This document shows positions 33,117-36,675 of a stretch of 59,449 bases of DNA, piece by piece. Each line of letters starts with the position of its first letter. Position 1 is the first letter of the stretch. The notes below the pieces were generated by a model. It was not told where the DNA came from and did no database searches. It saw only the letters and a program-made list of their open reading frames with translations. The stretch is from a virus (taxonomy: Duplodnaviria; Caudoviricetes). The position numbers and the translations under genes are program-made. The DNA lies in IMG/VR virus record IMGVR_UViG_3300034050_001176, positions 1 through 59,449 of that record. One strand, 5' to 3'.

Positions 33117-34628
33117 TTAACCTTTTCTAACTTTTGGTTTTGTACTTTCAATTAGAATAGTATTCTTTAATGGTAAATATTCCTTATGATAAAAAGACTG
33201 AAAAGCCAAAATTAGATAGGAAAGAATTTCTGCAAGGTTAATCCCCTTAAAATCAGGATGGCATTGCGGACAATCTTTTAAGCTGCAAACAAAGCCTTCT
33301 AGAGCTTTGGGATGACTTAGAGCATTGCCGTTAAACAGTCTGGCGACATCATCATACAATGGGCCAACCGCAACATGATTGGAGGTATGACTAGGTAATG
33401 CATGATCGGCTGAGTGATGACCAATCGGATCAGAGCCGATTAAGTCAGCGGGCTTCCAGGTATAGGAATAGACATCGAGATTTAAAATACGCTCGAGATA
33501 ATCTTTTTTAAAAATATCCTTTTTGCGCATTGAGTCCTTGAGCTTTGCATTTGATGCACTAATTAGTACTCCTGAAGGGTTGATATAGGATTTAAGCACT
33601 CCCCCATAGAAAAACTCAACGGCCGCTTGACCCGAGTTGCCATAGCATACGGCGTTATATTTTCCGGATCCAAATTTCCCTTCCAGATTAACCAGTAGTA
33701 CATGATCAGAGAACGCACCGGTGCCAGAAATCAGGTTATAGGAACCATTGGAAGCTAGATAATCCCAAGTGCCATTACCCTTAAGAAAGACATTACTATT
33801 GTTAGGATAGCCACTAAGTCTGGTTGAACTGAGTTGCCCTGAAGTGTTATTGCTGATGTCAAAGACTTTAGTGTCAATATAGGTTTTATTGCTGACATCT
33901 TGGGGATTGATCGGATTAGCACAATTGATGATGCCATTATTTAACATATTCAAGCTGCCGTTATTTAATAGTTCCATGCGTTTGGTGGCATTGGTAGCAA
34001 ACTTGAGGCTGGCTGACCCTGATGCCCAGACATAGGCTTCAGAGGTGTTATTGTTAAAACCGAACTGCACACCCGTACCGGTAATATTGCTATCCACCGT
34101 AAGACCTGCCGCAGTTGCCGCAGGATTGGTGTTTTTAATCGTTAGACCAGAGCTAAGATTATCTAGATCATTGGTGGTGATTGTCAGAGGATTCACCCAA
34201 GCACCATTGCCATTTAGAAAATATAGACTGTTACTAGGATATCCATTGATTCGTGAGCTGTTTAGCTGGCCGGTGGTGTTGTTATTGATATCAATCGTGG
34301 TGACCGCAATGGTGGGATTACCGGCAATGCCATTACCGTTGGTTACACTAATCCCAGAGCCGGCAACTAAACTACGCCCAGTATAGGTTGCCGTACCTGT
34401 GCGTGCCAGTAATCCAGTTGTGCTAAGATTGGCTAGGCTTTGTAACTCTAGATTTAGAGTTAGCCCAATGGTGCCAGCTCCCGTTATCGGCGAGCCAACA
34501 ACACTCAGACCGGGTGATCCGGTAATCGCTACCGAGGTAACCGCCAAGTTGGGAACTGTGGTGTTGACATAACTCTCACTGGCAAGCGGTTGCCAGGTGG
34601 AACCATCACAATACTCGAGCTTAACCAT
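33117..34628 (-). CDS. Distal long-fibre protein with a C-terminal intramolecular chaperone (peptidase S74-like)
   Basis: Gly/Asn/Thr-rich fibre repeats (two DIxNNTxGQLxSxRxxGYP units); SNAKLK..ILNLDVYSYTWK. Confidence 0.7.
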   Translation of the reverse strand: MVKLEYCDGSTWQPLASESYVNTTVPNLAVTSVAITGSPGLSVVGSPITGAGTIGLTLNLELQSLANLSTTGLLARTGTATYTGRSLVAGSGISVTNGNGIAGNPTIAVTTIDINNNTTGQLNSSRINGYPSNSLYFLNGNGAWVNPLTITTNDLDNLSSGLTIKNTNPAATAAGLTVDSNITGTGVQFGFNNNTSEAYVWASGSASLKFATNATKRMELLNNGSLNMLNNGIINCANPINPQDVSNKTYIDTKVFDISNNTSGQLSSTRLSGYPNNSNVFLKGNGTWDYLASNGSYNLISGTGAFSDHVLLVNLEGKFGSGKYNAVCYGNSGQAAVEFFYGGVLKSYINPSGVLISASNAKLKDSMRKKDIFKKDYLERILNLDVYSYTWKPADLIGSDPIGHHSADHALPSHTSNHVAVGPLYDDVARLFNGNALSHPKALEGFVCSLKDCPQCHPDFKGINLAEILSYLILAFQSFYHKEYLPLKNTILIESTKPKVRKG

Positions 34629-34661
34629 TTATCAACCGTTTGCTCCAACCACATCCCATTG

Positions 34662-35420
34662 TTACAAACCATTGTTAAAGCGAATCATGCCTGGCGTTAA
34701 AGTGACCGGTCTTTGGGCAGCAGTGCCACCTGGCAGGGTTGCTGAAGCGGTTCCTGGTAACACCGGATTAGCGGCAATGCTTAAGGTGGCAATGTTGTTG
34801 GCCATGGTCACCAGGATTTGATTGGTGGTACCTACCACGCTATCTAGGCCGCTTTTAGCAAGTCTGGCAAAAACGATACTTGTCGTACCCACAGCAGTGA
34901 TTAATGCGGTTTGCATCCAGGAAGTCACCCCATTGATTGTGCCTGAGGCAATGTCCACCACTCCACCTTGCAGCATTTGCGAAGGGGAATCATAATCACT
35001 TGCGCGAGTTAACACCCAAGGCACTGTAGCCGAACCGACATTGGTGACGGTATAGAGACCATTTTGCAATTGGGTGGTTTGGTCTTTCACTAAAATTCGT
35101 GCATTAAGCGCTGGCGTTACTCCATCTAGGGTAAAAACCAGGTTAGCACTGCTGGTAAGTGTTGCCCCAACCCCTAATGTGCCATTGGCATAGGTTGCCG
35201 CTAAGTTAGTAGTGGTTGCGGCAAGGCATGGTTTTAGATTGATGAGAGAATTGATCACGAAGTTTTCTGTAGCTAAATTATACCAGCCCGTACCATCCGT
35301 ATATTCTAATTTACCAGTAGGGGTTGGTGGTACAGCTTTGACCGGAGAGGCTGGAGATTGAGTTTGCAGTTCATTTAGATTTTGTACTGTCAAATTAGTC
35401 GCTGATGATTCTGTAGTCAT
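34662..35420 (-). CDS. Middle fibre protein
   Basis: LDGV..RILVKDQT..QNGLY..W.LTRASD phage fibre domain. Confidence 0.75.
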   Translation of the reverse strand: MTTESSATNLTVQNLNELQTQSPASPVKAVPPTPTGKLEYTDGTGWYNLATENFVINSLINLKPCLAATTTNLAATYANGTLGVGATLTSSANLVFTLDGVTPALNARILVKDQTTQLQNGLYTVTNVGSATVPWVLTRASDYDSPSQMLQGGVVDIASGTINGVTSWMQTALITAVGTTSIVFARLAKSGLDSVVGTTNQILVTMANNIATLSIAANPVLPGTASATLPGGTAAQRPVTLTPGMIRFNNGL

Positions 35421-35490
35421 AGTATTTATCCTTTTTAAAAAATTAAGAGCTTTATTCTTTAATTATAGCTTAAAGTATGGCTTGAGTACA

Positions 35491-36675
35491 TTAAGCAGCC
35501 CCATTATTGTAGCGTACCATGCCAGCAATGGGGGTAGCTGGACGTTGGGTATTTGTTCCCTTGGGAATAGTCATTGCCTCAGATCCAGGCAGTACTGGGT
35601 TGTTTGAAAAATTAGTGGTTATCGGGTTAAGTAATCCGCCTGAGCCATAGATTGCCCCTTGCAAGGTAATGCCAGTATGAAGCAGCGTATTCAAGCTATC
35701 GGCAGCACTGACAGCACTTGCTTGGGCATTGGTTGCTGAAGTTGCGGCATAGTCAGCACTACTGGAAGCATCAGAGGCGGAACTGGAAGCACTACCTGCG
35801 GATAGACCTGCGGCAATTGCTGAAGCACCGGCTCCTAAGGCTGATGCTCCAGCCGCAGTTGCCGCTCCACTTGCTGTCGCTGCTGCACCAGTTGCTTCTG
35901 TGGCGGCAGCAGTCGCCTCTAAGGCAGAGGCAGATGCTTCTTCCGCACTCACCGCTGCTTCTTCTGCAGCTGCTTGGGCTTGAGCTTTAAATTCCTCGGT
36001 CTCAGCTTTAATCTGCTCCAAGGTTTCCTTGGTCGCATAGTCCTGGTCAGGAATTGCGACGGCAATTACACCATCATCGCCAGCCTTTAAGATTTTAGGC
36101 TGTATTCCTACCAGCTGATTCAAGCTTTGGGCATTGGTTAAGCTTGAGTTGGGTTGTTGCAAAATATACCGCGCATCGACAGGCGCTACTGCAATAGTCA
36201 CTTCTACTGGTCGGTTGTTGGCATCACCTTGCCAAACTGTTCCTTGCTTAAGATTAGGTAAATTGGCAACTGCAATCGTAGGCTGTGGGGTAGCAATATT
36301 GGCATTGTTACCGATCCATAAATTACCTGACGCTAAGGTTGGGGTGAGGTAATCAACATTAGAAGTGGCAATTGCTAAAACCCCAGAGACATTCTTGATC
36401 AGCCCGTCATTTAGAGCACTCAAGGCTTGGGCCTTGGGCAAGCTTGGCACCGGAGTGTTAACTACAAAGGTGGTTTGCAAGAGCACATCCAACTGCTTTT
36501 GTAAGAATTTGACGTCAATGGTTAAATCAATCAGTTTAAACGTTGGCAAGGGGCGGCTGTTCTCATCGCCCATCCAGACATAGCCTCTCTCTAAATCAGG
36601 CAGAGGTTGATTGATGCTAGATAAGCCCGTAACTGGCGAAATAAAAGGGTCGGTATAGCCGGAAAGATATTTCAT
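35491..36675 (-). CDS. Proximal fibre protein
   Basis: Three LxxGxxWxGxxNxxP repeats, two AQxL..D(Y) repeats, and an Ala/Ser-rich coil. Confidence 0.65.
   Translation of the reverse strand: MKYLSGYTDPFISPVTGLSSINQPLPDLERGYVWMGDENSRPLPTFKLIDLTIDVKFLQKQLDVLLQTTFVVNTPVPSLPKAQALSALNDGLIKNVSGVLAIATSNVDYLTPTLASGNLWIGNNANIATPQPTIAVANLPNLKQGTVWQGDANNRPVEVTIAVAPVDARYILQQPNSSLTNAQSLNQLVGIQPKILKAGDDGVIAVAIPDQDYATKETLEQIKAETEEFKAQAQAAAEEAAVSAEEASASALEATAAATEATGAAATASGAATAAGASALGAGASAIAAGLSAGSASSSASDASSSADYAATSATNAQASAVSAADSLNTLLHTGITLQGAIYGSGGLLNPITTNFSNNPVLPGSEAMTIPKGTNTQRPATPIAGMVRYNNGAA

Follow-up and report, generated by a model that had tools for sequence, protein, structure and literature searches.

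Several tail fibres of tailed phages are assembled from more than one gene product. In the long tail fibre of T4 (gp34-gp35-gp36-gp37) and in the fibre of the T5-like phage DT57C (LtfA, LtfB and LtfC) several gene products are joined non-covalently, and in DT57C the LtfA chains give β-strands to the LtfC sheets, as far as the accessible part of that account goes (PMC10713586). Other fibre folds are completed within a single chain. According to the available part of its description, the N-terminal portion of CBA120 TSP4 (TSP4-N) consists of a triple β-helix (residues 7-42) followed by a three-stranded antiparallel sheet in each subunit, and the three sheets form a triangular β-prism II as in K1F endosialidase and T4 gp34 (PMC8825819). 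Here we describe three consecutive fibre genes, all on the minus strand of a stretch of Caudoviricetes DNA of 59 449 nucleotides (nt) (IMG/VR record IMGVR_UViG_3300034050_001176, analysed at its full length and referred to as the window). The open reading frames (ORFs) encode proteins of 394, 252 and 503 amino acids (aa), each of which ends or begins in the middle of a fibre motif. Sequence comparison and structural modelling indicate that the three proteins are probably successive segments of one trimeric fibre, held together by non-covalent joints in each of which a β-prism II is split between two gene products.

The split motif has the form QRP..G.IRFN-6 residues-E.xDG..W. That its contiguous form would be common in phage fibres had been claimed in the original prediction, and this holds. 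A profile of the first half retrieved 7366 representative proteins (E ≤ 0.001), many of them giant fibres with up to 15 copies; among the best 150 of these, 552 of 586 first halves run on into the second half, four are terminal and 30 are unclear. The module itself is thus very common, and its split form is a rare state derived from it. When 14 contiguous copies were combined into a profile, residues 54-78 of TSP4-N were matched (7rej, 7rfo, 7rfv; E 0.004-0.006). The profile was needed for this match, as one contiguous segment searched against the PDB gave nothing useful. In an AlphaFold2 (AF2) monomer of one contiguous copy, strands are formed at residues 33-36, 41-46 and 49-52 (IRYN, FEGY and W...) with a predicted local distance difference test (pLDDT) value of 89-94, and a Foldseek search with this model places CBA120 TSP3 and TSP4 at the top, followed by a streptococcal phage hyaluronidase and Mtd, all with weak E values (0.03-1.8). 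Judged by sequence and model together, the motif matches the β-prism II part of the TSP4 anchor domain (7REJ, 7RFO, 7RFV), which shares the pattern ..RYN-6-E.Y..G.W and whose three-stranded sheet and three-fold prism (PMC8825819) would, going by the models, be formed here as well. Unlike TSP4, where the whole sheet comes from one chain, the sheet would here be contributed by two gene products, divided at the loop after strand 1. In neither upstream window gene does one polypeptide provide the whole sheet, as both stop three residues past the Asn. Pfam holds no family for the 394-aa or 252-aa protein, and none for the surroundings of the motif in fused relatives or for any of the 14 segments with a contiguous motif.

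The proximal protein of 394 aa (35491..36675, minus strand) contains an anchor-like N-terminal region, an Ala-rich coiled-coil-like stretch and, at its C-terminus, the first half-motif. It has tail-protein matches in PHROGs, with its C-terminus aligning to the N-terminal positions 35-65 of phrog_1325, and residues 217-349 give a weak match to the coiled coil of T7 gp17 (E 0.0056). Identity to the proximal proteins of related loci is 33-43%. The C-terminal 36 residues (35494..35601, minus strand), NPVLPG...QRPATPIAGMVRYNNGAA, are predicted to form the first prism strand and half of the following loop, and will be referred to as socket 1. The protein reads ...NPVLPGSEAMTIPKGTNTQRPATPIAGMVRYNNGAA up to its stop codon (also quoted as ...TNTQRPATPIAGMVRYNNGAA). 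Junction 1 (35421..35490, minus strand) is a 70-nt spacer with AAGGA 9 nt ahead of the next ATG, and the downstream gene lies in another frame.

This downstream gene encodes the middle protein of 252 aa (34662..35420, minus strand), which consists of a leader, a plug, a core domain and a second socket. The leader of 35 residues (35316..35420, minus strand) is predicted to be disordered (pLDDT <50). It is followed by plug 1 (residues 36-55; 35256..35315, minus strand), GKLEYTDGTGWYNLATENFV, which would supply strands 2 and 3 of the sheet, and by a globular core domain (residues ~62-190; 34851..35237, minus strand; pLDDT 82-96) that is also present in annotated tail fibres of cultured phages. 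Socket 2 is formed by the C-terminal 35 residues (34665..34769, minus strand), NPVLPG...QRPVTLTPGMIRFNNGL; the C-terminus of the 252-aa protein, which reads ...NPVLPGTASATLPGGTAAQRPVTLTPGMIRFNNGL up to the stop (also quoted as ...TAAQRPVTLTPGMIRFNNGL), is homologous to socket 1 (51% over 43 aa). At junction 2 (34629..34661, minus strand) the spacer is 33 nt long and in frame, comprising QWDVVGANG, TGA and TAA with the ATG following at once; counting the stop of the 252-aa gene itself (34662..34664), three stops are found here in total. The distal protein of 503 aa (33117..34628, minus strand) begins directly with plug 2 (residues 1-21; 34566..34628, minus strand), MVKLEYCDGSTWQPLASESYV, in which VKL would be the three residues ahead of the Glu given presumed removal of the Met. 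The protein gives a mosaic alignment with other distal fibres, and a search with its N-terminal region found six close relatives only. Its C-terminal part may contain a Peptidase_S74-like intramolecular chaperone (residues 359-396; 33441..33554, minus strand; Pfam E 0.0028). The score against PF13884 (18.3 bits) lies below the cutoff of 22, and the close relatives P0241, P0243 and P0246 are annotated with this family.

The half-motif strings on which the original prediction was built are present letter for letter in the three translations. The separate starts of the downstream genes, a plausible ribosome-binding sequence at junction 1 and the in-frame 33 nt with TGA TAA at junction 2 were likewise read from the sequence as described. 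When all six frames of the 59-kb window are scanned, the gene ends that form sockets 1 and 2 are the only places with the first-half pattern. The second-half pattern has five matches, two of them the plug-bearing gene starts and three in stop-rich frames. Promoter- or terminator-like sites within 32700..38100 are no more frequent than in shuffled sequence and mark no junction, junction 1 included.

The cut falls at a largely constant place in the motif. Joined end to end, the two halves read G.[IL]R[FY]N - 6 residues - E.[YW]....W, with three loop residues from each side. The spacing between Asn and Glu in contiguous copies is six residues in 13 of 14 (alignment A3) and in 447 of the 552 found in the best 150 representatives, counted with a lazy pattern, and of the 91 terminal first halves 84 stop three residues past the Asn. 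On the other side of the cut, 29 distinct short leaders were collected from distal proteins, one being a spurious match; of the 28 genuine ones, 12 read M-[K/R]-x-E and 16 read M-[A/P/T/V]-x-x-E. As a general rule, methionine aminopeptidase leaves the Met in place in M-[K/R] and removes it in M-[A/P/T/V]. With this rule applied, all 28 plugs are expected to carry three residues ahead of the Glu. Since three residues from each side restore the loop of six, the cut would correspond to a nick halfway along the loop that connects strands 1 and 2.

The same arrangement is conserved among homologues. There are 307 homologues of the 252-aa protein of similar length (E ≤ 0.001), and their ends were counted in the 120 listed, which are 45-94% identical. 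The first half is found at the C-terminus in 119 of the 120 by pattern and in the remaining one by eye, with exactly three residues after R-x-N in 112 of the 119. A leader followed by the second half opens 118 of the 120, the misses being a short N-terminal form and a variant. A single homologue of the 120 (P0045) extends 12 residues beyond the Asn (…RFNTSLQESKLNRFK), apparently through loss of the usual stop and translation into the spacer. The core is also found in longer proteins; no half motif stands at the end of any of the 120 listed, and the contiguous motif is present elsewhere in 15. The 1941-aa protein P0124 combines a 394-like N-terminus and three core domains in one chain from which the motif is absent. 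The existence of close homologues as single fused ORFs had been set beforehand as the observation that would speak against a genuine split, and neither the 120 homologues of near length nor the 120 longer ones include a fused member of the family.

A census of loci gives a similar picture. In the first 151 related loci 35 genes end in a first half, and a gene with the second half comes next in every case (27 by pattern and eight by eye). After a further 80 loci were added, making 231 in addition to the window, 91 distinct terminal first halves were found by pattern, two of which, from GC-rich loci (L050 and L054), were judged spurious. For 88 of the 89 genuine ends a plug-bearing ORF lies downstream (83 by pattern, five by eye); the remaining end is 95 nt from the edge of its locus and cannot be judged. 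The search for socket-ending proteins followed by plug-starting genes, which had been suggested as a check, therefore finds the pairing kept wherever it can be seen. On this comparative evidence the split is old and conserved and not a recent break. Related loci were reached with alignment A1 and with A5, a set of closer sequences; a scan of genome contigs with the single protein found none. By eye, any covariation of socket tails with plugs is confounded by the relatedness of the loci, and no weight is placed on it. In GenBank the matches are confined to the core domain (22 phage records) and in no case reach 80% coverage of the 252-aa protein; no record of a cultured phage with the split family was found there.

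Errors of assembly do not account for the stops. Contigs from four other lake-water runs span both junctions with no differing letter and no insertion or deletion, and the stops are therefore not assembly errors. The stretch is nearly unchanged in 24 freshwater and lake-water runs; none of these 24 listed runs is an RNA run. A second, co-existing lake-water strain differs at 40 sites in the 252-aa ORF, all within 34806..35229 in the core domain. Third codon positions account for 38 of these differences, and 39 would each leave the protein unchanged if considered one at a time, so that purifying selection acts on the ORF. In the contigs compared, neither the junctions nor the two half motifs show a difference.

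Modelling of junction 2 is consistent with direct pairing of the two halves. The C-terminal part of the 252-aa protein (residues 186-252, alignment A1) and the N-terminal part of the 503-aa protein (residues 1-75, alignment A2) were folded together in three copies each, with the trimer layout imposed as input and not predicted. The model scores 0.88 in all three runs, compared with 0.02 for the best of three controls; contacts agree between runs to at least 95% and the pLDDT of the partner is at least 89. The mark used for such models is passed by 58 of 80 solved complexes and by two of 110 mismatched pairs, a calibration that is only roughly valid here. The modelled contacts are those of an antiparallel hairpin (G244/M245-C7, I246-Y6/E5, R247-E5 and F248/N249-L4), to which R237-W12 and contacts across protomers are added. 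On socket 2 the interface covers residues 241-251 together with 226, 229, 234 and 237-238, and on plug 2 residues 1-10, 12 and 14 touch the socket. As had been proposed for trimers of the C-terminal and N-terminal halves, the two ends pair in the model as one hairpin and look like one β-prism sheet, which is not a demonstration of binding in the cell. For the split form, this model is the one place where strand 1 is seen paired with strand 2. The clues to a trimer, namely homology to the trimeric fibre of phage LME-1 and the possible S74-like C-terminus, are indirect only.

From these observations a scheme for the fibre can be proposed. Its owner would be an uncultured T7/LME-1-like phage, with the 394-aa protein proximal, the 252-aa protein in the middle and the 503-aa protein distal. 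In an ordinary fibre each chain would fold the sequence G.IRFN, six-residue loop, LE.xD, turn and W..L into a sheet, and three such sheets would make a triangular prism. In the split fibre the upstream chain would stop three residues past the Asn and give strand 1 as the socket, and the next protein would give strands 2 and 3 as the plug, the distal plugs beginning three residues ahead of the Glu. The prism would then be built by six chains, with the new C- and N-termini meeting in the loop. The sequences themselves show the anatomy of the split, its conservation, its geometry and the exchanges, whereas binding of the halves, the trimeric stoichiometry, the Met processing and the order of assembly are what we infer in this scheme. 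The strand-complementing plug-and-socket idea of the original prediction thus gains computational support from the conservation of the ends, the 3+3 loop, the modelled hairpin and the exchange of distal parts described below.

All that the distal proteins have in common is the plug (~20 residues) and, to some extent, an S74-like C-terminal region, and they are mosaic in between. An exchange is seen between two loci (L001 and L076) whose middle proteins are 97% identical and whose plugs are 80% identical, and whose remaining distal proteins are only 25% identical. Distal parts are thus exchanged directly behind the plug, as expected of the modular, swappable fibre that had been suggested. They would be exchangeable at this point because plug and socket are standard. 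The number and kind of segments vary as well. One middle protein (locus L083) has two core domains, and two loci (L171 and L172, about 3126 onward) encode a four-protein chain with three joints in succession. In L167 (about 2680 onward) the distal protein opens with a plug variant, MTKPEYWDSITGQW, and continues directly with collagen-like G-x-y repeats. Four further loci, L003 (about 7680..7810), L004 (about 7700..7850), L080 and L081, have a plug-only ORF of 45-62 aa behind the middle gene, with an acidic helix-like tail (e.g. ...DEDIYTLLQALNDEVL), and here the next fibre gene has no plug. It is possible that these small ORFs are mini-adaptors.

A broader proposal, which we put forward tentatively and with some doubt, is that the nicked β-prism serves as a general coupling standard in which any trimer ending in a socket takes any trimer starting with a plug, or an adaptor of 45-62 aa. 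If so, fibres of two, three or four segments would be formed by one phage group, perhaps with mixed lengths or tips on a single virion. In the loop, the free carboxylate of the C-terminus would face the amine of the processed N-terminus in place of the missing peptide bond, and this would explain why the residue count ahead of the Glu tracks the rule for Met removal.

The proposed joint can be compared with several known systems. Phage LME-1 is a T7-like podovirus with six trimeric fibres, as described in the accessible part of its structural report (PMC12407071). The LME-1 tail fibre orf22 (pdb 9EFK) is homologous, over its residues 258-421, to the core domain of the 252-aa protein, with positions 41-206 of the A1 profile aligning to this region of 9efk (E 1.7e-40). 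In contrast to the window proteins, orf22 is a single chain of 658 aa, and the profile match covers the core and not the split ends. In the secondary receptor-binding proteins (RBPs) of the Klebsiella phages KP32, K11 and KP34 a short conserved N-terminal peptide similarly confers exchangeability; according to the part of the account available, this peptide docks on a complete T4 gp10-like domain and makes a branch (PMC13352976), whereas here one fold would be shared and the fibre would continue in line. For T4 and DT57C, the available part of PMC10713586 describes no repeat split at a fixed loop, no reuse of such a split at successive gene borders and no plug-only adaptor, and the sections available of the gp36/gp37-interface literature and of the RBPseg atlas report no such joint. 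Multi-protein fibres and strand donation are already known. For a fibre β-prism split at a fixed loop and reused at successive gene borders, we found no description in full-text searches of the literature outside subscription journals.

The pili of the chaperone-usher pathway offer a parallel of mechanism. Their subunits lack one strand, the seventh, which the N-terminus of the next subunit fills in with the help of a periplasmic chaperone and an usher, and a head-to-tail chain is formed. The likeness is one of analogy only, as these pilins are immunoglobulin-like monomers, whereas the fibre joint would be a trimeric β-prism receiving two incoming strands, with no chaperone or usher and no homology. 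Pfam searches of the 394-, 252- and 503-aa proteins gave no pilin, chaperone or usher family.

A number of points weigh against a fibre joined in this way. The whole case is made from sequence and models, and the complex model concerns junction 2. That model used its own shallow alignments (25 and 13 rows) in a 3+3 layout unlike the calibration set, and its pass may only reflect memory of the unsplit fold, because the unsplit fold has been solved (7rej and others). The sequence match to TSP4 is marginal (E 0.004-0.006) and covers the second part of the motif only, and the Foldseek rows are weak, with E values of 0.03 and above. With regard to the loop, seven of the 91 joints have four or five residues past the Asn, the Met-processing argument applies a general rule to proteins whose processing is presumed, and the scheme gives no place to the leaders of 9-56 residues, disordered in the model, that the middle proteins carry ahead of the Glu. 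Nor does anything in the scheme enforce the order of the segments, and in loci of the L076 type the proximal and middle ends are nearly alike (GMIRFNTSL vs GMLRFNTSL).

The alternative that survives best starts from the observation that the 252-aa protein has both halves. Its C-terminal strand could pair with its own plug within the homotrimer, in which case the 394-aa protein would join the 503-aa protein directly, or the 252-aa protein would form a separate closed particle. Such an arrangement agrees with the gene order, and with first and second halves being equal in number, as well as a chain does, and the homology of the 394-aa and 252-aa sockets means that either could accept the 503-aa plug. 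We nevertheless consider it unlikely. The core domain stands in line or in tandem in the single chains of P0121, P0122, P0124 and P0140, in the L083 middle protein and in residues 258-421 of LME-1 orf22, which suggests that the two ends of the core point in opposite directions. A closed trimer would also have no visible means of attachment to the virion. A weaker point is that the halves in an AF2 monomer of the 252-aa protein reach a pLDDT of 49-67 as opposed to 89-94 for the contiguous motif, a comparison that is silent on pairing between chains of a homotrimer.

It could also be argued that the conserved ends act as recombination linkers only, or dock elsewhere on the virion, and that the halves never pair. 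Mosaic fibre genes are known to carry conserved linkers where their modules meet, and the exchange boundaries in these loci do fall directly behind the plug. A linker acting purely at the DNA level would, however, have no need of the 3+3 rule, of the dependence on the second residue seen in 28 of 28 plugs, or of protein-level conservation at 45-60% identity, and the confident hairpin-like pairing in the model would be unexplained. For these reasons this possibility is regarded as improbable.

Fusion of the products at each junction into one polypeptide by read-through, frameshifting or ribosome hopping had been kept as a weaker alternative in the original prediction, and it is the in-frame junction 2, with its spacer of just 33 nt, that lends itself to such recoding. 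The frame statistics and the triple stop at junction 2 contradict it. Junction 1 is out of frame with a spacer of 70 nt, and across 84 junctions the downstream gene stands in the three possible frame offsets in 16, 33 and 35 cases, with gaps of 0 to about 70 nt between socket gene and plug gene. There is hence no fixed frame relation of the kind that a recoding site needs. Downstream genes open with ATG or GTG directly behind in-frame stops, and no fused form was found among the 120 near-length and 120 longer homologues listed. As the gene pairs show all three frame relations, recoding is very unlikely. Recent mutation of one large fibre gene into pseudogene pieces, for which the far commoner contiguous motif (552 of 586 in the best 150 representatives) could be cited and which the original prediction had already held to be unlikely, is scarcely credible given the same cut at 88 of 89 genuine junctions in diverged phages, 39 of 40 strain differences being synonymous and junctions that are identical in four further runs.

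The fibre genes lie in a phage gene cluster that runs from 39783 down to 19065 and contains genes for both terminase subunits (small and large), for a patatin-like phospholipase and for the proximal, middle and distal fibre proteins, followed by portal, major head protein and a second, fibre-like gene of 423 aa. The order terminase, patatin, proximal, middle and distal fibre, portal and head recurs in related loci, including a Rickettsiales metagenome-assembled genome and Candidatus Megaera venefica. The patatin-like gene (36699..37871, minus strand; Pfam Patatin E 8.3e-29) adjoins the fibre genes in nine of nine related loci compared, and its product may have a conserved role as an enzyme of the virion or of entry in this phage group.

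The window holds two related phage clusters that are inverted and lie tail to tail (470..17524, plus strand; 39783..17905, minus strand), and their paired proteins are 69-96% identical from the small terminase through to the last tail genes. In cluster 1 terminase and portal are separated by a gap of just 479 nt (2253..2731), where the patatin gene and the fibre genes, all three of them, are missing. The gap has no DNA match to cluster 2, and its translation retains a broken patatin start and the end of a 73-aa ORF; about 5 kb have therefore been deleted, and the cluster 1 copy is probably defective. A second fibre-like gene is found in each cluster behind a large tail gene of 717/719 aa (23704..24975, minus strand, 423 aa; 10257..11492, plus strand, 411 aa). 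The two products are 89% identical and match a PHROGs tail fibre (E 2.9e-25), and the phage may thus carry two fibre systems. PDB searches with the 423-aa protein, and with proteins of 610 and 647 aa, gave no significant match. Elsewhere in the window, a 2382-aa protein with a DUF637 (possible hemagglutinin) domain (46022..53170, plus strand) is followed by a SUKH/SMI1-KNR4 family protein (53468..53968, plus strand), with an MFS transporter upstream, in a layout that resembles the toxin/immunity pairs of contact-dependent inhibition. The remaining stretch at 54059..59409 (minus strand) carries replication and recombination genes, comprising a primase-like protein (PriCT_2 plus DUF3987), AAA_24, a YqaJ-like exonuclease and a CarD-like protein.

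If the three window proteins are indeed segments of one fibre joined through split prisms, a simple structural rule would describe how working fibres arise from mosaic fibre genes. The unit of exchange would be a whole protein with a standard plug of 20 residues, so that recombination need never fall inside the fold. The joint would also represent a small natural connector for assembling receptor-binding fibres, with a socket of ~35 residues and a plug of ~20. For annotation it follows that proteins ending in ..G.IRFNxxx or starting with (M)xxLE.xDG..W are complete, and should not be labelled as truncated or merged. The locus gives a first view of the fibre apparatus in the uncultured phages of Rickettsiales-type genomes (Megaera) and of lake water, whose sole solved relative is the Legionella phage LME-1.

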